Below are positions 1 through 10,820 of a DNA stretch of 10,820 nucleotides, piece by piece. The number at the start of each line of letters is the position of its first letter. The stretch's first letter is position 1. Source of the DNA: a virus (Duplodnaviria > Heunggongvirae > Uroviricota > Caudoviricetes); IMG/VR virus record IMGVR_UViG_2630968558_000009. One strand, written 5' to 3'. The notes under the pieces were generated by a model, which had not been told where the DNA came from, made no database searches, and was given only the letters and a program-made list of their open reading frames with translations. A program made the translations under genes and the position numbers.

Positions 1-19
1 CACAGGAGTCAAAATTGCC
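1..19. repeat. Partial direct repeat of the tRNA-Sec 3' portion; candidate distal attachment-site (att) repeat marking the left island boundary
   Basis: Positions 1-10 (cacaggagtc) are identical to 10397-10406 inside the tRNA-Sec gene; over 1-19 the match to 10397-10415 is 16/19. The window starts inside the repeat, so it may extend further left. Confidence 0.45.
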
Positions 20-67
20 ATATAACTATTTGATTCAAATCGTTTATATTTTTCTATTCTAATTCAT

Positions 68-90
68 TTATACACATCCTTATACATATA
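68..90. repeat. TATACACAT-N2-TATACATAT motif near the left end; a similar copy lies at 10254-10277 near int; candidate integrase arm-type binding site
   Basis: Left copy ttatacacatccttatacatata (68-90); right copy ctatacacattactatacatattt (10254-10277), same orientation, each within about 100-150 bp of an element end. Confidence 0.35.
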
Positions 91-135
91 ATATCTATCG
101 ATTAATTGTTACACGTATCTTCACGCACGTTAACT

Positions 136-436
136 CAGGAAAAAAATTTTTTTTCGAAAGAACTGTTCACACTGTTCACCTTTCTTTTTTCTCCTTTTAT
201 TTCAGTATGATAGGTGGTGAATAATGGGTGAAGGGTGAACATTCGATTCTTCACCTCCGGCATTCTGCCGGTGTGACTCATACCGGTGATTAATCCCCCG
301 TACTGAAATCACACAGGGAGAAAAAAAGTTTTTTTTGATTTGATTGTTCACACTGTTCACCTTTCGTTTTTCTCTTTTAATTTCAGTGTGATAACGGGTG
401 AATATACGGTGAAGGGTGAACAGTGGATTGTTCACC
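136..436. repeat. crr-like cis replication region: two direct repeats of about 105 bp carrying TGTTCACC/GGTGAACA iterons
   Basis: Near-identical units at about 136-241 and 316-422, period about 180 bp. Iterons at 164-171, 173-180, 234-241, 345-352, 354-361, 415-422 and 429-436. P4 crr is recalled as two ~120-bp direct repeats with type I octamers bound by alpha. Confidence 0.7.
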
Positions 437-454
437 TTCGGGGAGTTCAGGGAT

Positions 455-480
455 AAAAAAAGACCGGCAGATGCCGGTCA
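455..480 (-). terminator. Rho-independent terminator of the leftward operon, just past the alpha stop
   Basis: Plus strand aaaaaaa-gaccggc-agat-gccggtc; on the minus strand this is a 7-bp GC-rich stem with a 4-nt loop followed by a run of 7 U, directly after the alpha stop codon at 487-489. Confidence 0.55.
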
Positions 481-486
481 GGTGGG

Positions 487-2820
487 TCAGGTTGTTGCAG
501 GGTCGTCACATTTTGGCAGCCAGTCGCCGTAGCTTTCCTCTTTCAGCGTCAGGTTGGTCTGTATCCCCTGTTTGGTATGGCGCTTCTCGTAATTCAGTCC
601 GTATTCCTTCAGCATCACCGGCAGCCCCAGCCCGAACATTTTCAGACTGAGTACATTCCGGTAGCCGTTTGCCTCCATGTAGGCCAGATAGGCGTGATAG
701 AGGTATTTACGGTAATTGCGCGGGATGATACTGGCGTTCCCCATATACATGCCGCTGGTCTGCGGCAGGGTTTCCAGATAGCCGATAAAATCAAACGTCG
801 GGTCGGCATCCCGTTTGATGTTCAGCGCCTCGTCTGAGTTTTGCTGGGACTGAAGCAGTGACCGGGCGAGCATCGGGTCGCTGAACTTCTGCATCAGGTG
901 ACGCACGATGACCGCCAGCTCGCGGGTGATTTTGTCCTTAAGCTGCGGGTCGCGCTCCTGCGGGGCTATCTGTTCCGGGAAGTGAATAATCACCCGCCGG
1001 CGTGACACGCCGCCGCTGCGGTCGGTGAAGCGCATCGGGTTATTGTTCACGGCCAGAATCACCGCCGGGATATGCGTGGAGTATGCATCCCGGTATTTCG
1101 GGTCAACGGACACCGCATCGCCGCCGGTGATGGCCTTGAGTCCGGCACCGTCGCCGCTCCATTTTTCCTGGTCCGGCAGGCGTATCAGTGAGAAGCCAGT
1201 TAACGCGGCACGTTCACGCGGGGATTCCAGCGTCTCAATGGTGGCCGATGTGGCGTTATCCTCCCCGGCCAGCAGGGTGGCGATTTCGGCCATGATACTT
1301 TTGCCGCTGCCGCCGGGACCGGTCACCTCCAGAAAGAGCTGCCAGTCGTAGCGGTTTGCCAGCACCATAAACAGTGCGGCCAGAATCACGTCGCGTTTTT
1401 CCGCACGGCCACCGGCGGCACGGTCAAGCCAGCGCCAGAACGCGGGGGCGTGGGTTTCCAGCGTTTCCCCTTCCACCGGCGGGGTGAAATCCACATCACA
1501 CAGGGTGCGCATCCAGTGTGACGGACTGTGCGGGTGGAACGTGCCGTTCTGCGTGTCGAGCACGCCGTTACGAAAGCCAATCAGGCGGCGGGAGGGGGCT
1601 TCCTGCTGCGGAATAATCAGCTTCAGGGTGTCCACCACGGAGGCCACTTTCCCGGAGGAGAACGGCGCGCGCAGACGCTGAAACAGCCCGGCCACATCCC
1701 GGGCAAAGTCCTGTGGTGGCAGCACCTTCCAGACACCATTTTCATAGCGGGACAGAAGCTGGCCGTTGGCATCGACCGCGAGCGCCTCGCCGTAATGCTC
1801 ATAGATACGCATGGCCTTTTCGCTGGTACTCATGGCGGAAAACTCCGCTTCGCTCATGGTGTCGAACGGGCTTTCAGCCGGTGGCCGGATGGCATCATAA
1901 ATGGCCTTACGGGTGGCTTCCCCGCCGTACTGCGTGAAGGCATCATTCCAGTCACCGAAGACCGGCGGCAGGGCAACAACACCTTCACACGCATCTGCGG
2001 CTGCGGCGGCTTTTTTCTGGCCGTCACCGCTGAGGTCACGGTCAGCGGCAAGGACAATCTGACAGGCGGGATGCTTCTGCCGGGCAAGGCTGGCCAGAGA
2101 AAGGAGGTTCACGGAAGAAAGCGCCACCATCACCGTTTCACCGGTCAGGTGATGCACGGTTAGTGCGGTCGCGTATCCCTCCGCTATCCACAGACGTTTT
2201 CCGGCCTGATTCTGTCCTTCAAGGGTGTGACAGGTGCCCCTGACCTGTCCGCCTTTCAGGGTGCGCTTACGGCCGTCAGCGCTGATTAACTGAAGGTTAA
2301 CCAGTTCGCCGCTGTCGTCATACAGTGGCACCACAAGGTCACCGGCGCGCCAGCTCACGCCACCGGCTCTGTGTGTGCCGGTCAGCATCCGGCATTCCCG
2401 GCCGGGAAAGCCCTTGCGGGTCAGGTAGGCGTTACCGGTTCCGGGACGGGTTTTCGCCATCAGGGTTTGTGCCAGTGCGGCGGCGTTCTTCCGGGCAGCG
2501 TCTGTTTCAGCACCGGCGGCGGTCGTCACTGCCGGGTCAGCCGGGGGCAGGCTGCCGGTCACGGCAGCCACCTTTGTGGCCGCGTCGGACGGGGAAACAC
2601 CAAACACCTTTTCAACCAGTTTCAGGCCGTCACCGGCACCACACTGATTGCAGTACCAGGTGCCGCGCCCCTCCCTGTCATCAAAACGGAAGCGGTCACT
2701 CCCGCCACAGACCGGACAGGGCTGATGATGGTTCTTCAGCACCTGAATCCCCAGCGCCGGGAGAATACGCGGCCAGTGACCGAGCGCATGGCTGACGGTG
2801 GCGGTTACGTTCATTTTCAT
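487..2820 (-). CDS. alpha: P4 alpha-type primase-helicase (replication protein)
   Basis: 777-aa ORF, the length I recall for P4 alpha. N-terminal zinc-binding CPVCGGSD...YCNQCG, primase-type acidic motifs (EGYATA, LAADRDLSGDG), Walker A GPGGSGKS. AAGGAG Shine-Dalgarno 7 nt upstream of the ATG at 2820. Flanked by crr as in P4. Confidence 0.93.
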   Translation of the reverse strand: MKMNVTATVSHALGHWPRILPALGIQVLKNHHQPCPVCGGSDRFRFDDREGRGTWYCNQCGAGDGLKLVEKVFGVSPSDAATKVAAVTGSLPPADPAVTTAAGAETDAARKNAAALAQTLMAKTRPGTGNAYLTRKGFPGRECRMLTGTHRAGGVSWRAGDLVVPLYDDSGELVNLQLISADGRKRTLKGGQVRGTCHTLEGQNQAGKRLWIAEGYATALTVHHLTGETVMVALSSVNLLSLASLARQKHPACQIVLAADRDLSGDGQKKAAAAADACEGVVALPPVFGDWNDAFTQYGGEATRKAIYDAIRPPAESPFDTMSEAEFSAMSTSEKAMRIYEHYGEALAVDANGQLLSRYENGVWKVLPPQDFARDVAGLFQRLRAPFSSGKVASVVDTLKLIIPQQEAPSRRLIGFRNGVLDTQNGTFHPHSPSHWMRTLCDVDFTPPVEGETLETHAPAFWRWLDRAAGGRAEKRDVILAALFMVLANRYDWQLFLEVTGPGGSGKSIMAEIATLLAGEDNATSATIETLESPRERAALTGFSLIRLPDQEKWSGDGAGLKAITGGDAVSVDPKYRDAYSTHIPAVILAVNNNPMRFTDRSGGVSRRRVIIHFPEQIAPQERDPQLKDKITRELAVIVRHLMQKFSDPMLARSLLQSQQNSDEALNIKRDADPTFDFIGYLETLPQTSGMYMGNASIIPRNYRKYLYHAYLAYMEANGYRNVLSLKMFGLGLPVMLKEYGLNYEKRHTKQGIQTNLTLKEESYGDWLPKCDDPATT

Positions 2821-2834
2821 GGTGTTGTTCTCCT

Positions 2835-3155
2835 TCAGTGCAGTACCGGCGCTTTTATGTGACGGGCACAGAGTTCATCCATCACAACCAGCCCGAGAAA
2901 GGACAGCGACGGCGCGGCCTTCAGGGGGCCGGATTCCATTAAATCTTCCAGCAGGGCACAGGCTATCTGACGCCCTTTTTCCTCACCGTGCTGGCGCAGA
3001 TAAAAGCCTTCCAGCTCAGCGGCGATGGCCGCCTCCAGTGACTCAAGGGTGAGATGCGGGTAGCGGTGCTGACGTTCGCACACGGTCAGCCAGGCACAGG
3101 CGACAGCACGACGGTAAAGGGCTGCGCGTAAGACGGGCGGTAAGGGTGTTTTCAT
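2835..3155 (-). CDS. P4 orf106-like hypothetical protein
   Basis: 106-aa ORF immediately upstream of alpha (14-bp gap), preceded by GGGAGG Shine-Dalgarno. Size and position match the orf106 of P4 as I recall it. Confidence 0.7.
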
Positions 3156-3290
3156 TTGTTTTCCTCCCTGTGACAGATGACTGCATTCCGTGCCGGTTGC
3201 ATTAACTGATAAGGCATATCTGCGTCTCCTGAAGACGTGCGTATCCCTGCGCGAATACGCACATTTAATTTTTCGGGTGTCGTTTTTTAA

Positions 3291-3746
3291 TTACAGATAA
3301 TTGCGGTAACTGTTATCCGGGGTGATTTCCGGGTCAGGCTCCGTGCAGGGAATTTCCCGCCATTCCCGCGCCACCGGTGCCGCCCGGCTGGCCGGAACAG
3401 TGTCCTGCGGGTAAATATCCAGATATTTCTCCCGCCATTTCTGTAATTCCGGGTCTCCGGCCATTTCTTTCAGTACCGCATGCCGGTTTACGGGGCTGCG
3501 TTTAAACAGGTCAGGACGGTCACAGGTAAATTCCCGCAGAAAACGCCCCAGCGGGATGTCTGTGGTGCGCCCGTCGGCGAGGATACGCACAAGGATACTG
3601 AATTTACGGCGGTACGGGTTCCAGACAATGTCCGGGCAGCGGTACGGCATTTCCCACGGAATACCGTCTTCCAGAATGCCGACCACGGTCACATCGGGAA
3701 AACCGGCAGAACGGTAAATCTCACCGGGCTGGGGAAAATCAAACAT
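3291..3746 (-). CDS. P4 orf151-like hypothetical protein
   Basis: 151-aa ORF in the P4 left-operon position between the epsilon-like gene and orf106; its start overlaps the end of the upstream ORF by 8 nt (3739-3746). Confidence 0.7.
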   Translation of the reverse strand: MFDFPQPGEIYRSAGFPDVTVVGILEDGIPWEMPYRCPDIVWNPYRRKFSILVRILADGRTTDIPLGRFLREFTCDRPDLFKRSPVNRHAVLKEMAGDPELQKWREKYLDIYPQDTVPASRAAPVAREWREIPCTEPDPEITPDNSYRNYL

Positions 3747-4026
3747 GCGTCCTGTCTCCCCGGTCTTTCTGCTGGGCGAGAAAATCGCGGCACAGGCCTT
3801 TGGCTTTCAGCTCATTCAGCACAAAATCAATATCCTCATTCAGGTAGCTGAAAATATGCGGAATGTAGAGCTGATGCAGGCCGGAGAGTTCACGGTGAAT
3901 CAAATCACCCCCAACAAACTGGGATACGGCGCTGGCGCGGTTGAGCTTATGGTAAGCCTCAATGCTGAGGTGTTCACGGGCGTCATGACGCGCTGAGACG
4001 GTCTGAGGGGCTTTTTTATTACGCAC
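3739..4026 (-). CDS. eps: Epsilon-like protein (in P4, the anti-repressor that derepresses the P2 helper prophage)
   Basis: 95-aa ORF directly upstream of and overlapping orf151. Assigned from size and synteny with the P4 left operon; I did not recognise the sequence itself. Confidence 0.55.
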
Positions 4027-4423
4027 GGGACACCTCCATCACCGGCAGACGGGCCGCAAGGGAGAGCACATAGTCACGGACAAGGGAACGGCGGGCACTG
4101 CGTTCATCACCGGCGACGGTGCGAAGCATGCAGATACGGGGATGACGGTCTGCGCGACGGACAGCCGCAAACACAAAGACAAATTCAGGGTGTGAAGGGG
4201 TAAGGGTCGTAGCCATAAGGCAACCTCCGATAACAGCGTAAATGACGCTATCGCCGGAGTTCTCACGCTCGATGGCGATAGCCCAGACGGGGGTGAGAAT
4301 ACCGGCGTTATCGGAAACCGGCCAGCCCGGAGGCTGCCCCGCCTGAGCTACCATTGACTCAGAGGCATAACATGCGATTGCGAACAGGATCATACCTGCA
4401 CGGCAAACCACACGCCACACCAT
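4019..4423 (-). CDS. Candidate kil/eta-position protein; start codon uncertain
   Basis: The 211-aa track ORF (4019-4654) overlaps vis in its 5' part, so only the 3' portion can be real. In-frame ATGs at 4423 (MVWRVV...) and 4393 (MILFAIACY...) sit downstream of the leader terminator. The stop at 4019-4021 overlaps the epsilon start (4026), suggesting translational coupling. Confidence 0.3.
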
Positions 4424-4455
4424 AATTTGGTGCTCTGTGGCGTTGATTGCGACAC

Positions 4456-4477
4456 AAAAAAAGACGCATGGCGCGTC
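4456..4477 (-). terminator. Candidate intrinsic terminator in the leader between the putative early promoter and the first ORF
   Basis: Minus strand reads gacgc-gccat-gcgtc followed by 7 U (plus-strand A-run 4456-4462, stem 4463-4477). The stem is only 5 bp, so this is tentative. Confidence 0.35.
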
Positions 4478-4540
4478 ATATGTCGCCGATAACATACTCG
4501 GGTTCTCACGCCCGGCTGCCGATTTTGCGACAGCGGAAAA

Positions 4541-4570
4541 ACTATATCCGCAAATGCCGGAAAAAGGCAA
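4541..4570 (-). promoter_or_regulatory. Candidate PLE-like early promoter of the leftward operon
   Basis: On the minus strand, TTGCCT (plus 4565-4570) then an 18-nt spacer then TATAGT (plus 4541-4546), downstream of the vis stop and about 110 nt upstream of the first ORF start. Sequence match only. Confidence 0.3.
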
Positions 4571-4605
4571 GCCAGAAAAAGGGAGTTTTTGCAGAACAGG
4601 CATCA

Positions 4606-4872
4606 TCATGCGTCGTACCCCCGTTTGCGTCCGGCAATGCGCCCGGCCATCCATGCGGTGACTTCAGAGTGCAGCCAGGCCACATTTTTACCGCCAAGAC
4701 TCACCTGCGGCGGAAATTCCCCCTTACGGATGAGTTCATAGATGGTCGAGCGTGACAGGCCGCACAGGTGCATCACTTCCGGCAGACGTAAAAAACGCTC
4801 CTGCGTGATGTCCGGCAGCGGCATCAGTGGCGTCACAGGGGAGGGAGACGGGGAAGAAAAAACAGCTTGCAT
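4606..4872 (-). CDS. vis: Vis-like AlpA-family helix-turn-helix regulator/excisionase
   Basis: 88-aa ORF with an AlpA-type HTH ([16 protein letters not shown]), GAGGT Shine-Dalgarno upstream of the ATG at 4872. It lies between the ori/late-promoter region and the early promoter, as P4 vis (orf88) does. Confidence 0.75.
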
Positions 4873-5122
4873 CGGGCTACCTCGTTAATGTCCATACAGC
4901 ACCGGATAAGTCCGTCCGGCTTCGGGTAGCGCTTTATTTTGTGAATATTTTCAGCAGACGCAACAGGGGGGATTTGTTCCGGCAGCCTTACGATGGCTGT
5001 ATGTTTTTTATCCATCCGGACTGGAAGGGTCTCAAAGGGTTCTGAAGGACCTGGAATTTTTTATAGTGAAATACAAATTGTTTTTTCTTATTTATTTCAG
5101 TGAATTAATAAAAATAAAAAGT

Positions 5123-5254
5123 AATGAACAGCACAAAAAGCCCATCAACGGGTGAACAGTGGTGAACAGACGGTGAACAGTCATTACTGCGATTGTTCAC
5201 CCTTTAACTTACTGTATTACCTATCTTTTTTCTTATGGTGAACAGAGGTGAACA
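5123..5254. repeat. ori-like iteron cluster (replication origin)
   Basis: Six TGTTCACC/GGTGAACA octamers at 5151-5158, 5161-5168, 5172-5179, 5194-5201 (opposite orientation), 5237-5244 and 5247-5254, in AT-rich surroundings between vis and sid. The same octamer as in crr, about 4.7 kb away, matching the P4 ori-crr arrangement. Confidence 0.7.
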
Positions 5255-5333
5255 GTAAAATATAAAAAAATAAACAGTAAGCCGGTTTTTCCAGCGACCT
5301 TTTCCTGGCTTGCCGGTCTGAGGATGAGTCTCC

Positions 5334-5400
5334 TGTGTCAGGGCTGGCACATCTGCAATGCGTCGTGTTGTTGTCCGGTGTACGTCACAATTTTCTCAAC
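5334..5400 (+). promoter_or_regulatory. Psid-like late promoter with two TGT-N12-ACA dyads (candidate Delta/Ogr binding sites)
   Basis: TGT-N12-ACA at 5334-5351 and 5372-5389, centres 38 bp apart, upstream of the sid ATG at 5424. The TGT-N12-ACA dyad is the known activator site of P2/P4 late promoters. Confidence 0.55.
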
Positions 5401-5423
5401 CTGAAGTGACGAGGAGCCGGAAA

Positions 5424-6158
5424 ATGTCTGACAACACCATCCCTGAATATCTGCAACCCGCACTGGCACAACTGGAAAAGGCCAGAGCCGCCCACCTTGA
5501 GAACGCCCGACTGATGGATGAGACCGTCACGGCCATTGAACGGGCAGAGCAGGAAAAAAATGCGCTGGCGCAGGCCGACGGAAACGACGCTGAAGACTGG
5601 CGCACGGCCTTTCGTGCAGCCGGTGGTGTCCTGAGCGACGAGCTGAAACAGCGCCACATTGAGCGCGTGGCACGCCGGGAGCTGGTACAGGAATATGACA
5701 ATCTGGCCGTGGTGCTGAATTTTGAACGTGAACGCCTGAAAGGGGCGTGTGACAGCACGGCCACCGCCTACCGGAAGGCACATCATCACCTTCTGAGTCT
5801 GTATGCAGAGCATGAGCTGGAACACGCCCTGAATGAAACCTGTGAGGCGCTTGTCCGGGCAATGCATCTGAGTATCCTGGTACAGGAAAATCCGCTCGCC
5901 AACACCACCGGCCATCAGGGCTACGTCGCACCCGATAAAGCTGTCATGCAGCAGGTGAAATCATCGCTGGAACAGAAAATTAAACAGATGCAAATCAGCC
6001 TCACCGGCGAGCCGGTTCTCCGGCTGACCGGACTGTCAGCGGCAACACTCCCGCACATGGATTATGAGGTGGCAGGCACACCGGCACAGCGCAAGGTGTG
6101 GCAGGACAAAATAGACCAGCAGGGAGCAGAGCTTAAGGCCAGAGGACTGCTGTCATGA
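5424..6158 (+). CDS. sid: Sid-like capsid size-determination (external scaffold) protein
   Basis: The track ORF starts at 5358, but that ATG lies inside the promoter dyads. The ATG at 5424 has a GAGGAG Shine-Dalgarno 8 nt upstream and gives 244 aa, the size I recall for P4 Sid. First gene of the sid-delta-psu order. Confidence 0.8.
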   Translation: MSDNTIPEYLQPALAQLEKARAAHLENARLMDETVTAIERAEQEKNALAQADGNDAEDWRTAFRAAGGVLSDELKQRHIERVARRELVQEYDNLAVVLNFERERLKGACDSTATAYRKAHHHLLSLYAEHELEHALNETCEALVRAMHLSILVQENPLANTTGHQGYVAPDKAVMQQVKSSLEQKIKQMQISLTGEPVLRLTGLSAATLPHMDYEVAGTPAQRKVWQDKIDQQGAELKARGLLS

Positions 6159-6400
6159 TGCGCTGCCCTTTCTGTCGTCATTCAGCGCATACCCGCACCA
6201 GCCGGTATGTGAGTGACAATGTCAAAGAAAGTTATCTGCAGTGCCAGAATATTTACTGTTCGGCGACATTTAAAACGCATGAGTCAATTTGTGCCGTGAT
6301 TCGTTCTCCGGTCACGGAGGAAAAACCAGCACCGGCAAGCACAGCACCGGCTGTTGTCCGAAAAGTTAAAGGCTGTTACAGCTCACCATTCAACCATTAA
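6155..6400 (+). CDS. delta: Delta/Ogr-family zinc-finger late transcription activator (single-domain form)
   Basis: 81-aa ORF with an Ogr-like Cys4 arrangement (CPFC ... CQNIYC). Its ATG overlaps the sid stop (ATGA at 6155-6158). Confidence 0.8.
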   Translation: MMRCPFCRHSAHTRTSRYVSDNVKESYLQCQNIYCSATFKTHESICAVIRSPVTEEKPAPASTAPAVVRKVKGCYSSPFNH

Positions 6401-6414
6401 TCAGGAGACGGGGT

Positions 6415-6987
6415 GTGACCACAATGTCATTACAGCAGGCTTTTGAGGTCTGCCAGAATAACAAAGCAGCATGGCTGCAACGCAAAAATGAGCTGGCTGC
6501 GGCCGAACAGGAATATCTGCGGCTTCTGTCAGGAGAAGGCAGAAACGTCAGCCGCCTGGACGAATTACGCAATATTATCGAAGTCAGAAAATGGCAGGTG
6601 AATCAGGCCGCCGGTCGTTATATTCGTTCGCATGAAGCCGTTCAGCACATCAGCATCCGCGAGCGGCTGAATGATTTTATGCAGCAGCACGGCACAGCAC
6701 TGGCGGCCGCACTGGCACCGGAGCTGATGGGCTACAGTGAGCTGACGGCCATTGCCCGAAACTGTGCCATACAGCGTGCCACAGATGCCCTGCGTGAAGC
6801 CCTTCTGTCCTGGCTTGCGAAGGGGGAAAAAATTAATTATTCCGCACAGGATAGCGACATTTTAACGACCATCGGATTCAGGCCTGACGCGGCTTCGGTG
6901 GATGACAGCCGTGAAAAATTCACCCCTGCGCAGAACATGATTTTTTCGCGTAAAAGTGCAGAACTGGCATCACGTCAGTCTGTGTAA
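6415..6987 (+). CDS. psu: Psu-like polarity suppression protein (in P4, capsid decoration and Rho antagonist)
   Basis: 190-aa ORF, the size I recall for P4 Psu. GTG start at 6415 with AGGAG Shine-Dalgarno at 6403-6407; the first ATG is at 6424. Third gene of the late operon, followed by a hairpin and cos. Confidence 0.8.
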   Translation: MTTMSLQQAFEVCQNNKAAWLQRKNELAAAEQEYLRLLSGEGRNVSRLDELRNIIEVRKWQVNQAAGRYIRSHEAVQHISIRERLNDFMQQHGTALAAALAPELMGYSELTAIARNCAIQRATDALREALLSWLAKGEKINYSAQDSDILTTIGFRPDAASVDDSREKFTPAQNMIFSRKSAELASRQSV

Positions 6988-7022
6988 AACTCCCCGAAAA
7001 TCCGCCTGTTTTTACTGAAAAA

Positions 7023-7065
7023 AGCCATGCATCGATAAGGTGCATGGCTTTGCATGCGTTTTCCT
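7023..7065 (+). terminator. Candidate terminator downstream of psu
   Basis: Inverted repeat agccatgca (7023-7031), 9-nt loop, tgcatggct (7041-7049), followed by tt and then gcgtttt. The T-tract is interrupted, so confidence is moderate. Confidence 0.4.
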
Positions 7066-7151
7066 GCCTCATTTCCTGCAGATCACGCCGCGCCCGACGC
7101 GGCGTGAGCGTGTCAGTGCAACTGCATTAAAACCGCCCCGCAAAGCGGGCG

Positions 7152-7170
7152 GGCGAGGCGGGGAAAGCAC
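7152..7170. other. P2/P4-type cos site (19-nt cohesive-end sequence)
   Basis: Exact match to the recalled P2/P4 cohesive-end sequence GGCGAGGCGGGGAAAGCAC. A perfect 10-bp-stem hairpin lies just upstream (tcacgccgcg-cccga-cgcggcgtga, 7083-7107). Position between psu and the int-proximal cargo matches P4. Confidence 0.8.
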
Positions 7171-7259
7171 CGCGCGCATGTATGCAGGAAATAACTTGGT
7201 TCTCCAGCCAGAGAAAGAAACTTAACTGGAGAGTTTTGTGTTTTGTTACATGGATGTGT

Positions 7260-9020
7260 TCAGGTTTTATTTATTAATGAAATACTTTTCTCTAGTGACT
7301 CCTTAACTTTTTTTACGCTATTTTTTAATTCAATAATGGCTCCACGACGAAAAGAAATTTTAATTTCATCCAGGTATGAATTTAAAAACTCATCTAGTTT
7401 TTTTAGATGAGGTAGCTCGTTGGATAGAAAGTCACAAAGATTTGAGAAGTTATATACAGACAATAGATGGTTTGAAAATAATTGAATATCATAAATGGAC
7501 CAGCTATTTTGTATGGCATTTATGATTAAATCTACATCTAAGGTTTCCAGGGCTTTATACTTGAAATCTGAATGGTATATATCCATGTCGATAGCGGTCC
7601 AACCATCGTTAACCATCTTGTTTCTTAATTCTTGTATTTTTTCTTTTTCCGTTATTTCAATATATTTTTCAACGAAAAAATTATAAAGGTCGTCCCCATC
7701 ATGTTTTAGAATGTGGAGTGGTATGCTATTAATATTTGGAACAGTTTCATGAAAATATGATTTTATTTCATGGTCACTAAAGCTAAACATATTTTGTTTG
7801 ATGGTGTTTTCATCCAAGGCATCTACACGTGGTATATATTCAGATTCTGAGAGTCTAATATAGTTATTCGTGGCAGTTAGCCATGTGGATAGATTTGGAG
7901 AATTTGATTTTAAGATTGTTTTTGTTATTTCTTCCTGATAGTCATCTTCAGATATGCTATATAGTTCGGGCCTTGCTAATCCAGCATAATCATCTTTCTT
8001 GGGAGGAGTGTTGTAAGTAAAAACATATGGAAGAATATCTTTATGCGAAATTTCATTAAAACAATATGGAGCCATTTTATTATTGTAGTTTTTATATGCA
8101 ATAATGCTTAATAAATTGTTTTCCTCTTCACTTATTTTATTTTGTTCACTTTCTGGAGTGGTTGAAATTGTTCTATATGATGATGAAACAATATTTTCAT
8201 GGAATTCATTTTCCTTATAGTTGAATTTTTCCTTAAGTATTATATGTGCACACAATGAGCTTACTAAATTTTTAATATCTATATCAGAGATATCTCTGTC
8301 TTGAGTTGTTTGTTCAAAAAATGGTAGGAGTTTTACAATGACTCTATTAATAATCCGGATATTGGTTTCTTCGAAACCTATAATTACTTGCTTAATGATG
8401 TCTCTATAATTTCCTTGTGTCTTCTCAAGCTTTTTGTCTAAAATCTCAGAAAGATTGTTTATAGAAAAATATATCTCATCGCTAATAACCTTTTCTTTAT
8501 GATTCAATGCATTATTGCTTTGCTTTGAAAAGTTACCCACTAAAATATAATCTAGCATCTTGTTATTTTGATAATTTTGTAAGCAAAAGGTTGCTATTTC
8601 ATCTCGTAAAGTTTGAGGTATACGTTCTAGATCATCAATGATAAAAACTCCGGAAAGATCTTTTAATACATAATGTTGCATTGCTCCAGCAAATGTTGAG
8701 ATTATTTTTCCAGCCAACCTCCCAGTGTTTTCTTCTTTAGTAATAGCTGTGGTTACATTTGATGCTAACTCTGTAATTATTTCGATATCAGGTGGATTTT
8801 CTAAATAAGTTACACTCAACATCTTGTCTTTAAAATCTTGTAAACTGTTTAATCCAAGCACAGATATATAAAATTGGTTCTTGTGAGAATAATATTTTTT
8901 AAATTCATGTTGAAGGAAGAATGTTTTACCAACTCCCCACTCACCATTTAACAAAATTAGACCTTCACGTTTTTCACTTAGTAATCTAATTAAAACAGAT
9001 ATTATTGCGCTTTTATCCAC
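7260..9020 (-). CDS. KAP-like P-loop NTPase with an uncharacterised C-terminal region of about 400 aa; cargo gene of the cos-int hotspot; candidate anti-phage defence protein
   Basis: 586-aa uninterrupted ORF. GTG start at 9020 with AAGGAG Shine-Dalgarno 6 nt upstream. Walker A GEWGVGKT (residues 26-33, nt 8922-8945) and Walker B-like VFIIDDLER (residues 125-133), resembling the KAP-family GxWGxGKS/T and hhhhDDLDR signatures. No hydrophobic stretch of transmembrane length and no nuclease/PLD/HEPN motif that I can identify by eye. Strongly AT-rich relative to the P4 core. Confidence 0.85.
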   Translation of the reverse strand: MDKSAIISVLIRLLSEKREGLILLNGEWGVGKTFFLQHEFKKYYSHKNQFYISVLGLNSLQDFKDKMLSVTYLENPPDIEIITELASNVTTAITKEENTGRLAGKIISTFAGAMQHYVLKDLSGVFIIDDLERIPQTLRDEIATFCLQNYQNNKMLDYILVGNFSKQSNNALNHKEKVISDEIYFSINNLSEILDKKLEKTQGNYRDIIKQVIIGFEETNIRIINRVIVKLLPFFEQTTQDRDISDIDIKNLVSSLCAHIILKEKFNYKENEFHENIVSSSYRTISTTPESEQNKISEEENNLLSIIAYKNYNNKMAPYCFNEISHKDILPYVFTYNTPPKKDDYAGLARPELYSISEDDYQEEITKTILKSNSPNLSTWLTATNNYIRLSESEYIPRVDALDENTIKQNMFSFSDHEIKSYFHETVPNINSIPLHILKHDGDDLYNFFVEKYIEITEKEKIQELRNKMVNDGWTAIDMDIYHSDFKYKALETLDVDLIINAIQNSWSIYDIQLFSNHLLSVYNFSNLCDFLSNELPHLKKLDEFLNSYLDEIKISFRRGAIIELKNSVKKVKESLEKSISLINKT

Positions 9021-9032
9021 AAAATACTCCTT

Positions 9033-10223
9033 TTAGTAATCATAATTAACGCAACCGGCTGGATAAATAAAATCGCTATACCATTGTAACATTTTTAATC
9101 TTTTCTCTAAGTATTGAGCATGATTATATGTTCCCCTAATGCTATTTTTATCAACATGAGCTAGTTGCATTTCAATCCATTTACTATCAAAACCTTGTTC
9201 ATGTAGTATTGTCGACATTGTATGTCTAAATCCGTGGCCTGTTGCACGTCCCTTATAACCAAGTAATTCGATCACTTGTGATATACTTTCTTTAGAAATT
9301 GGTTTAGTACGATTGTTACGTCCAATAAATATATAAGGATAATGGCTAGAGAGCGGTTTTAATTGATTAAAGAGGGTAATAACTTGAGATGATAAAGGTA
9401 CAAGGTGAGGACGACGCATTTTCATGCGTTCTGCTGGTATTTCCCATATTCCTTTTTCTAAATTGACTTCTTCCCATGTGGCAAAACGCAGTTCTTGTGT
9501 TCTTACCCCGGTAAGCATCACAATCTTGGTTGCATTTTTAGTGATTATGCTGCCAGTATAAGCCTCAAGATCTTTGACAAAATGAGGGAGTTCTTCTGCT
9601 GATAGAAAAGGATGATGTTTTTGCTTCGGTACAGCTAATGCGATAGCTAAATCAGGTGCTGGATTGTATTCAGCGCGGCCAGTGATGATCGCGTAGCGAA
9701 ACACCTCTCCGCATCGTTGACGTACTTTTCTGGTTTTCTCCAACGCTCCACGTTTTTCTATGCGTTTAAGTACTTCAAGCAGTTCTAGGGGTTTTATTTC
9801 AGCTATTGGCCGTTTACCAATGAAAGGAAAAACATCCTGTTCAAATGTTTTAATAATTTCTTCGCGATAAGCTAAAGTCCAGCGATCTGCTTTTGCTGCA
9901 TGCCATTCTCTGCTAACGGCCTCAAAAGAGTTTTCAGATGATAATTTCTGAGCAATTTTCTGAGCCTTACGTTCTTCTACTGGATCAATGCCATTTGCAA
10001 CCTGTTTACGTGCCGTATCGCGTTTCTCACGTGCTTCCGCGAGGCTTACAAGGTCGTAACTACCAAATGACATTAACCGCGCTTTCCCTGCAAACCGGAA
10101 ACGGAAACGCCAGCCTTTCGAGCCATCGGGATTGATAAGCAATGACAGACCTTGTCCATCGTTCAATGTGTATGGTTTGTCTTGTGGTTTTGCACGTTTG
10201 ATCTGTATATCGGTTAGGGCCAT
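9033..10223 (-). CDS. int: P4-family tyrosine recombinase (integrase)
   Basis: 396-aa ORF starting MALTD..., as P4-type integrases do, with a C-terminal catalytic region containing HGFRHT and RGTYNHAQY (catalytic Tyr). Adjacent to the 3' end of the tRNA-Sec gene. Confidence 0.92.
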   Translation of the reverse strand: MALTDIQIKRAKPQDKPYTLNDGQGLSLLINPDGSKGWRFRFRFAGKARLMSFGSYDLVSLAEAREKRDTARKQVANGIDPVEERKAQKIAQKLSSENSFEAVSREWHAAKADRWTLAYREEIIKTFEQDVFPFIGKRPIAEIKPLELLEVLKRIEKRGALEKTRKVRQRCGEVFRYAIITGRAEYNPAPDLAIALAVPKQKHHPFLSAEELPHFVKDLEAYTGSIITKNATKIVMLTGVRTQELRFATWEEVNLEKGIWEIPAERMKMRRPHLVPLSSQVITLFNQLKPLSSHYPYIFIGRNNRTKPISKESISQVIELLGYKGRATGHGFRHTMSTILHEQGFDSKWIEMQLAHVDKNSIRGTYNHAQYLEKRLKMLQWYSDFIYPAGCVNYDY

Positions 10224-10385
10224 GTGTATAACTGAAAACTACGTATAAAAAATCTATACACATTACTATACATATTTTTCGCGGATTCAGGGAGATGATC
10301 TCGGACTATTACGGACAAGCTGATTATTCATCGCATTGAATATAAATGATTTTATGGAGTGTCTCGGAACTGGCTGGATGAGGTT

Positions 10386-10480
10386 TGGCGGAAGATCACA
10401 GGAGTCGAACCTGCCCGGGACCGCTGGCGGCCCCAACTGGATTTGAAGTCCAGCCGCCTCACCGGAGACGACGATCTTCC
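10386..10480 (-). tRNA. selC: tRNA-Sec (selenocysteine tRNA, anticodon UCA)
   Basis: Reverse complement of 10386-10480 reads GGAAGATCGTCGTCTCCGGTGAGGCGGCTGGACTTCAAATCCAGTTGGGGCCGCCAGCGGTCCCGGGCAGGTTCGACTCCTGTGATCTTCCGCCA: 95 nt, long variable arm, TCA anticodon, CCA end. It matches the E. coli selC sequence as I remember it. Confidence 0.9.
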
Positions 10481-10820
10481 GCGCCTCGATTGCTACATGG
10501 AGGCGGGGCGCATTATAGCTACTTCCTTGAGTTTCTACATCCCCTGGTTCATTTTTTTCCGGGCAATATGCGCAAAGCTTTATCACTAACCCATTATAAT
10601 TAACATAAATATCATATATTCCAATGATATATGGGTAGGTTTATCGCTACCACGATCACATAAAACAAGAATCATAAATTAATAACCAGATATCGGAATA
10701 TTCACTCTGGCAGGGATGGTTTACAAAACTCTTTATCGGTCTCAGCACCCCCATAGCAGTAAGCGGCTCGTCAGAACCGTATTGATATTTACTGAGAGCT
10801 CAGATCAACTTTCCAGGGCA

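Follow-up and report, generated by a model that had tools for sequence, protein, structure and literature searches.

An apparently intact P4-family satellite prophage, seemingly of mosaic make-up, in the tRNA-Sec gene of Escherichia marmotae

What kind of mobile element occupies the 10,820-nucleotide stretch of viral DNA recorded as IMGVR_UViG_2630968558_000009 (Caudoviricetes; hereafter the window, meaning the whole of this stretch), and is it whole? An initial annotation, made from the letters of the sequence, read it as a complete P4-like satellite prophage integrated at selC, the tRNA-Sec gene, with a P2-type cos site. Our analysis leads to much the same reading, and we put at about 0.88 the probability that the window is an intact P4-family satellite, complete in the 'Type A' sense, whose prophage occupies tRNA-Sec in Escherichia marmotae. 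Read as the reverse complement, the window makes up the whole of draft contig JNBP01000174.1 (assembly GCA_000807695.3), and the complete E. marmotae chromosome CP025979.1 (GCA_002900365.1) contains all of its 10,820 bases with 100% identity; NCBI also records under this species the very protein that the window's cargo gene encodes (WP_038354828.1 / AUT28674.1). This origin accounts for the fact that the best complete E. coli genome, that of an avian pathogenic E. coli (APEC) relative, is only 98.1% identical to the window. An element of this type, sited at selC and covering at least 80% of the window, is present in 115 of 5,426 complete E. coli genomes. The true flanks were taken from a stretch of CP025979.1 (L003), in which window position x corresponds to position 19021 - x. 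The P4 reference was NC_001609 (X51522), which was compared with the window by BLASTN and at the protein level, and from which annotated features were mapped onto the window. Protein domains were identified with Pfam and NCBIfam, RNAs with Rfam, the tRNA with ARAGORN and defence models with PADLOC, and chance matching of the cos site and the attachment (att) repeat was gauged on 200 shuffled sequences.

A complete 'Type A' P4-like satellite has seven components (Moura de Sousa & Rocha 2021, PMC8628076). All seven (int, psu, delta, sid, alpA/vis, epsilon and alpha) are present in the window at full length, each backed by the Pfam domains to be expected or by an identity to P4 of 96-100%. The genes run in the order int - hotspot - psu, delta, sid - alpA - epsilon - alpha, which is the permutation of the P4 prophage, and the P2-type cos lies between psu and the hotspot. 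The initial annotation had listed crr, alpha, orf106, orf151, an epsilon-like gene, a leader/immunity region, vis, ori, the Psid dyads, sid, delta, psu, cos, cargo, int and the tRNA in prophage order, and we find every one of these features in that order. At the DNA level, window 141-6277 aligns with P4 4291-10436 (96.2% identity), 6430-7151 with P4 10903-11624 (96.5%) and 7152-7178 with P4 1-27 (100%), so that the match spans crr to the right end of P4 and continues across cos, its sole break falling inside delta. Beyond its first 27 bases, P4 1-4290 has no BLASTN counterpart in the window. The anatomy of the element, the intactness of its parts, both of its att sites and the coherence of its immunity circuit can all be read off directly. 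On these comparisons the element appears to be a mosaic, in which a replication, immunity and helper-exploitation core about 97% identical to that of P4 is joined to a monomer-size delta, a one-gene cargo beside cos, and a selC-specific integrase with its own att arms, the integration site being that of phiR73. A generic selC pathogenicity island that merely carries a P4-type integrase was considered and rejected, the full P4 core being present.

ARAGORN places the tRNA-Sec gene selC at 10386-10480 on the minus strand (Rfam tRNA-Sec, 83.8 bits), and the right att repeat, an exact 21-mer at 10386-10406, is the 3' end of this gene. Within the window, positions 1-19 match 10397-10415 at 16 of 19 positions, and two such matches were obtained in 0 of 200 shuffles. 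On the strength of this partial repeat, the boundary had been placed at or just left of the window start, and a full copy of the tRNA 3' end was expected there. In CP025979.1, the bases directly left of position 1 read ...GGCAAAT TGGCGGAAGAT, and the full 21-bp repeat TGGCGGAAGATCACAGGAGTC is indeed found, letter for letter, at window -10..10 (L003 19011-19031), positions 1-10 being its right half. The exact 21-mer thus occurs twice, at -10..10 and at 10386-10406, and the repeat-to-repeat unit is 10,396 bp, in agreement with the estimate of about 10.4 kb. The E. coli APEC relative, at 98% identity, has the full repeat too. Truncation of the element by the window start was considered and rejected, given that only 11 bases of the att repeat lie outside.

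Adjoining the tRNA-Sec gene is a full-length P4-family tyrosine integrase of 396 amino acids with selC specificity (9033-10223, minus strand), as had been proposed, which is 37% identical to P4 Int. Its arm-binding, central and catalytic domains are all present (Pfam Arm-DNA-bind_3, Phage_int_M and Phage_integrase), as are the catalytic motifs R239, H330-x-x-R333, H356 and Y366. The statement in the initial annotation that P4 itself uses a leucine tRNA gene proved correct, in that the annotated P4 attP core, which ends ...GGCACCA, overlaps annotated tRNA-Leu genes in E. coli genomes and is the 3' end of such a gene. Candidate arm-type sites for the integrase, TATACACAT and TATACATAT in tandem with a 12-bp period, are found both on the crr side (69-89, plus strand) and on the int side (10254-10274, plus strand); in the reconstructed attP, this pair flanks the core on both sides with equal spacing. 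The layout is that of the annotated tandem 12-bp arm repeats of P4 attP, although the sequence is different. Since P4 homology begins only at window position 141, both att arms appear to have been exchanged together with int.

The cis-required replication region crr (141-441, plus strand) is identical to P4 4291-4590 at 292 of 300 positions and consists of two 120-bp direct repeats (141-260 and 322-441) with ten type-1 alpha-binding octamers; these, and six more in ori, each match P4 at 8 of 8 positions. The alpha primase-helicase replication protein (777 amino acids; 487-2820, minus strand) is 99.1% identical to P4 alpha, with the Pfam domains Zn_Ribbon_Prim, Toprim_3, D5_N, DUF5906 and Pox_D5 and a Walker A motif at residue 501, and is followed by a Rho-independent terminator (455-479, minus strand) that is identical at 25 of 25 positions to P4 4604-4628. 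The ori region (4928-5650, plus strand) matches P4 at 673 of 724 positions and has its six type-1 octamers at 5151-5254. Three tandem type-2 10-mers at 5018-5047 match those of P4 at only 4-6 of 10 positions, P4 having CCACTTAAAG TCATTTAAAG CCACTTAAAG where the window has GGACTGGAAG GGTCTCAAAG GGTTCTGAAG; the tandem structure is kept and the sequence changed, while the neighbouring type-1 repeats are unaltered.

The helper-prophage derepression protein epsilon (95 amino acids; 3739-4026, minus strand) had been called epsilon-like, a label that is right as to the gene and too weak as to its relationship, because the protein is 98.9% identical to P4 epsilon (Pfam Derepression, 7.7e-51). Sid, the capsid size determination or external scaffold protein, is 98.8% identical to its P4 counterpart when taken as 244 amino acids from 5424 to 6158 on the plus strand; the gene was correctly recognised in the initial annotation, although the reading frame listed there (266 amino acids from 5358) begins further upstream than the P4 start, by 22 codons. 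Psu, the polarity suppression and capsid decoration protein (190 amino acids; 6415-6987, plus strand), is 95.7% identical to P4 Psu (Pfam Psu, 1e-88), and vis/alpA, a regulator and presumed excision factor (88 amino acids; 4606-4872, minus strand), is 97.7% identical to P4 ORF88 (Phage_AlpA, 7.3e-21). The alignment of alpha, sid and psu to P4 that had been suggested as a check therefore gives identities of 96-99%. Just upstream of sid, two TGT-N12-ACA activator dyads of its late promoter, the Psid dyads of the initial annotation, lie 38 bp apart at 5334-5351 and 5372-5389 (plus strand). By number alone the motif is not significant over the full window, with 5 observed where 2.5 are expected, and the two dyads count as evidence because of their position in the P4-collinear stretch immediately before sid.

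The 19-nucleotide cohesive end common to P2 and P4, GGCGAGGCGGGGAAAGCAC, is present exactly as had been described, at 7152-7170 on the plus strand. It occurs once in the window and was matched in 0 of 200 shuffles. An exact scan for this 19-mer in species-representative genomes (596 Gb) returned 38 loci, most of them in Enterobacterales. The 19-mer was also seen in a few metagenome-assembled genomes of Bacillota, Phycisphaerales, Chloroflexales and Verrucomicrobiia (loci L011, L012, L013, L027, L032, L036 and L042); these are probably chance matches or contamination, and chance would fit, since about four chance 19-mer matches are expected in 596 Gb on two strands.

Delta belongs, with the cargo and the integrase-att module, to the three modules in which the element departs from P4. 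It is a late-gene activator, and the window protein (81 amino acids; 6155-6400, plus strand) has a single Ogr-type zinc finger of the form CxxC...CxxxxC (Ogr_Delta, 1.4e-18). Its presence had been correctly noted, but it is half the length of P4 delta (166 amino acids) and is 51% identical to it over 45 amino acids only, in the first half, with 37% identity to the second half, perhaps implying that P4 delta consists of two such zinc-finger units. The short form is not rare, the identical 81-amino-acid protein being found on at least 1000 contigs.

Within the core, divergence is greatest in the leader/immunity region (370 of 417 positions identical to P4). The CI immunity RNA is recognised as a member of the Rfam C4 family at 4271-4358 on the minus strand (76.2 bits against a gathering score of 45), and upstream of it a leader segment matches Rfam isrK (4457-4534, minus strand; 68.3 bits). 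The differences between the window and P4 cluster in three sites, namely the loop of the second CI hairpin, one site upstream and one downstream. The specificity loop reads TTTCCGATAAC in the window (4307-4317, minus strand) and differs from that of P4 (ATCCTGTGAA), the aligned P4 segment being TATCCTGTGAA. The complements of the loop lie about 166 nucleotides upstream, as GTTATCGG within the isrK leader segment (4486-4493, minus strand; the equivalent of seqA), and about 93 nucleotides downstream, as GTTATCGGA (4226-4234, minus strand; the equivalent of seqC), where P4 has TTCACAGG and, at the homologous place, TTCACAGGA, respectively. In the window as in P4, both outer sites are the exact complement of the element's own loop; in P4 the downstream target, the loop and the upstream target lie at 8377-8384, 8456-8465 and 8644-8651, respectively. 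We take this three-site arrangement to be the seqA-seqB-seqC arrangement of P4 immunity. Overlapping the immunity RNA region is an Ash/Icd-like frame of the left operon (4019-4609, minus strand; Phage_ASH, 6.3e-22; Icd-like domain, 2.7e-20), which at about 85% identity to P4 is the most diverged segment of the core.

Similar three-way matches are found in related elements, each with a loop of its own: the E. coli APEC relative has loop TTCTTCGAGG and targets CTCGAAG, a Serratia element CCAATAAG / CTTATTGG and a Mangrovibacter element CCTTGAAG / CTTCAAGG, so that five different loop sequences are seen among the window, P4, E. coli, Serratia and Mangrovibacter elements. In a Klebsiella locus (L046), an exact target of at least 7 bases was not found. 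Compensatory changes in loop and targets imply that the immunity circuit is under selection, and the element is predicted from its loop and target sequences to be heteroimmune to P4. The loop and target specificity of the window, CCGATAAC/GTTATCGG, is shared with the satellite of E. coli ATCC 8739 and differs from that of P4, CCTGTGAA/TTCACAGG. The 98.1%-identical APEC relative has a different immunity type, whereas ATCC 8739, which is 91.8% identical overall, has the same type as the window; immunity type being at odds with overall similarity, this is further evidence of module shuffling.

How might such an element behave? The life cycle of P4 is established (reviewed in Lindqvist, Deho & Calendar 1993, which PMC9122126 cites). 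Because the parts of the window element are near-identical to those of P4, the P4 mechanism is the default. In a lysogen, CI RNA would pair with the two complementary sites of the leftward leader transcript, and this pairing would bring about early termination and keep alpha and epsilon silent. A P2-like helper, whether resident or infecting, would supply Cox and Ogr together with all structural genes; helper Cox and Ogr and the satellite's own delta would activate the late promoters at the TGT-N12-ACA dyads, and epsilon would derepress a resident P2. Int, probably aided by Vis, would recombine the 21-bp repeats to excise a 10.4-kb circle, which alpha would replicate from ori and crr. Sid would then force the helper capsid protein into small capsids, to be decorated by Psu, and the helper terminase would cut the shared cos and package the satellite. 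The exact P2/P4 cos in particular points to packaging by a P2-like helper, as the initial annotation had suggested.

Several considerations weigh against an intact and mobile satellite. Excision, helper dependence and packaging are expected by analogy with P4, and for this element the evidence on them comes from sequence alone. The collection scanned for cos contains no E. marmotae record and is silent on a helper in the source strain. The excised genome would be 10.4 kb as compared with 11.6 kb for P4; going by viable P4 deletion mutants, 10.4 kb would be within the packageable range. Copies of an IS66-family element lie about 105 bp outside the left att site and between selC and yicJ, the satellite itself being uninterrupted. 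Finally, a Vis of P4 type (97.7%) is paired with an Int and att arms of another type. This last point lends itself to the view that the element is a cryptic, domesticated P4-like remnant that looks complete, no longer excises or is mobilised (owing, for example, to a mismatch between Vis and the foreign Int and att sites) and is kept only for its cargo. The module comprising int and the att arms has been swapped relative to the P4 core, with P4 homology starting at 141 and int at 37%; phiR73, another P4-like element at selC, was first described as a 'cryptic prophage', in a title cited in PMC6174562; and decayed tandem remnants, recognisable by a rhuM pseudogene and by a further, partial att copy (the third), are seen at selC in E. 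coli relatives. Nevertheless, no core reading frame in the window is shortened, the two 21-bp att copies agree exactly, neither cos nor the alpha-binding sites differ from those of P4, and the immunity loop co-varies with both of its targets, indicating continued selection on the circuit. Moreover, the combination of P4-type Vis with selC-type Int recurs across genera, which suggests that the pairing works and is hard to square with a dead end. We consider a remnant unlikely.

The IS66-family copies invite another reading, in which what moves is a composite IS66 transposon, or a segment bounded by IS copies, with two direct copies around selC and the satellite. The window closes, over 62 bases (10759-10820), with the terminus (GTAAGCGGCTC...) of one copy (L003 5564-8262), which is inserted between selC and yicJ; the second (L003 19137-21761) has the same orientation and is 99.96% identical over 2,625 bp. 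Both flank the region in CP025979.1, and the draft contig ends there; indeed, the contig is almost exactly the satellite because it is bounded by these repeats. The copy at the window end, however, has an 8-bp target duplication of its own, CCATAGCA, a sign of an independent simple insertion. In addition, E. coli relatives carry the satellite at selC with no IS66 at all, and a segment so bounded would take in the essential-site tRNA and chromosomal flanks. A composite transposon is accordingly very improbable, and an intact P4-family satellite delimited by its 21-bp repeats is the reading that we prefer.

The interval between cos and int contains a single open reading frame (7260-9020, minus strand), of low G+C content (27-32%), where P4 has gop, beta and cII. 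It encodes a 586-amino-acid AAA+/KAP-like P-loop nucleoside triphosphatase (NTPase) that matches AAA_22 at 27.9 bits and KAP_NTPase at 23.8 bits, the latter over residues 5-53 only, and the PADLOC candidate PDC-S49 (E = 6.5e-11) in its ATPase half only. NCBIfam has no family for the protein, and a profile of the family gave no match to PDB sequences at E <= 1. Nothing matches the helical C-terminal half, and no effector domain is recognisable in the cargo protein. Homologues fall into 48 clusters, all from Enterobacterales, which are 52-99% identical and of constant length (about 587 amino acids), and the Walker A (G26-T33) and Walker B (D129-D130) motifs and R133 are invariant across them. 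In E. coli the gene is rare, being present in 38 of the 5,426 complete genomes, in single copy in each and in three allele classes.

Members of this family from Serratia, Klebsiella and Mangrovibacter (52-66% identity) occupy the same slot, in the order int, NTPase, (psu,) delta, sid ... alpha, and the Klebsiella and Mangrovibacter loci adjoin homologues of yicJ/yicI, the neighbourhood of selC. Across Escherichia, Klebsiella, Mangrovibacter and Serratia, int is 86-90% identical, the cargo 52-66% and the satellite core 30-82%. In these loci (L044-L048), the NTPase gene is always directly downstream of the selC-type integrase.

In P4-like satellites, the psu/cos-int interval has been documented as an anti-phage hotspot (Rousset et al. 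2022, PMC9122126), and a 2026 study found protection against phages for six of eight unannotated P4 hotspot loci picked at random (PMC13586616). Since the cargo lies in a known defence hotspot, a defence role is the best inference, and the NTPase is most likely an anti-phage gene that would benefit the lysogen. More tentatively, and at somewhat less than an even chance, we propose that the Enterobacterales family of about 587 amino acids, with an ORC/Cdc6-like AAA+ core and a helical C-terminus of about 300 amino acids that has no structural match, is an uncharacterised single-gene anti-phage system linked to the selC-type integrase across genera and subject to fast allele turnover (63% protein identity as against 99% in the core). 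PMC13586616 names 'Reve', a system of one gene that has both ATPase and KAP P-loop content. Compared by description only, 'Reve' and the cargo are both single genes of the P4 hotspot with this content, and the cargo family may or may not be 'Reve'. Should the cargo turn out to be protective against phages, the P4 hotspot repertoire would gain a compact system of one gene whose C-terminal domain is novel.

The remaining features of the window and its flanks can be dealt with briefly. Between alpha and epsilon lie orf106 (DUF5375; 2835-3155, minus strand) and orf151 (3291-3746, minus strand), which are 100% and 97.4% identical to their P4 counterparts; NCBIfam has no family for either orf151 or sid. 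A frame of 61 amino acids called on the source contigs at 7040-7225 (plus strand; L003 11796-11981) runs across cos and the conserved right end of P4; no Pfam hit is on record for it, and the call is probably spurious. On the minus strand at 7133-7152, a G+C-rich hairpin with a T run after it adjoins cos downstream of the int-cargo pair. It lies within the stretch (6430-7151) that is about 96.5% identical to the right end of P4 and could, to judge from its sequence, serve as the terminator of the int-cargo transcript. A scan of 6900-10500 for sigma-70 promoters and terminators gave sites no more numerous than in shuffled sequence and is uninformative. In the E. coli relatives, rhuM, as a gene or a pseudogene, is found beyond the left att site together with a further, partial copy (the third) of the tRNA-Sec 3' end, GATCACAGGAGTC (L001 2769-2790, 2900-3937 and 3990-4010; L049 1254-1415 for these features); they appear to be what is left, in decayed form, of a different element that had integrated in tandem at selC.

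How, then, does the element compare with known systems? P4 is a close reference, being collinear from crr to cos at 96-97% DNA identity, with alpha, orf106, orf151, epsilon, vis, sid and psu at 96-100% and the same RNA-based immunity architecture. The window element is nevertheless not P4 itself, as judged by integration site, delta and accessory genes: P4 has a tandem-duplicated delta of 166 rather than 81 amino acids with one finger, gop-beta-cII (none of which has a match in the window) rather than one NTPase, a tRNA-Leu rather than a tRNA-Sec att core, an Int of 37% identity and a genome of 11.6 rather than 10.4 kb, and it differs in its immunity loop, both immunity targets and the type-2 repeats of ori. 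Retronphage phiR73 likewise has a delta of monomer size, and P2 packages it. Likened to the window element by description only, phiR73 is likewise a P4-like prophage in the selenocysteine tRNA gene, but its cargo is retron Ec73, with a reverse transcriptase and msr/msd, whereas the window contains no reverse transcriptase and Rfam detects no retron RNA in it. Its integration at selC is documented by the titles of Sun, Inouye & Inouye 1991 and Inouye et al. 1991, as cited in PMC6174562 and PMC8628076.

A relative already catalogued is the satellite of E. coli ATCC 8739 (NC_010468), listed as 'NC_010468 / AAA_22 / WP_000160301' in Table S1A of Rousset et al. 2022 (PMC9122126), where WP_000160301 is exactly the ATCC 8739 cargo. 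It has the same integration site and gene order as the window element, core proteins that are 98-100% identical, an identical delta, vis and immunity loop, and a cargo of the same family; it differs in that its cargo is only 63% and its int 90% identical, and in having the rhuM remnant and setC beyond its left end, where the window element has IS66. The combination of a P4 core with selC integration is therefore not novel, a point missed in the initial annotation, as phiR73 (1991) and ATCC 8739 already display it. P4-like satellites are carried by nearly half of E. coli genomes (PMC8628076), and the element is of an ordinary, already catalogued kind, of which only the cargo ATPase gene is uncharacterised. 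As a discovery it carries little weight, given that selC integration by P4-like elements has been known since 1991 and that the architecture is in a published catalogue. Set beside P4, phiR73 and ATCC 8739, it offers instead a clean, fully annotatable case of modular exchange, in which a near-P4 core appears with a swapped delta, immunity specificity, cargo, and integrase and att sites.

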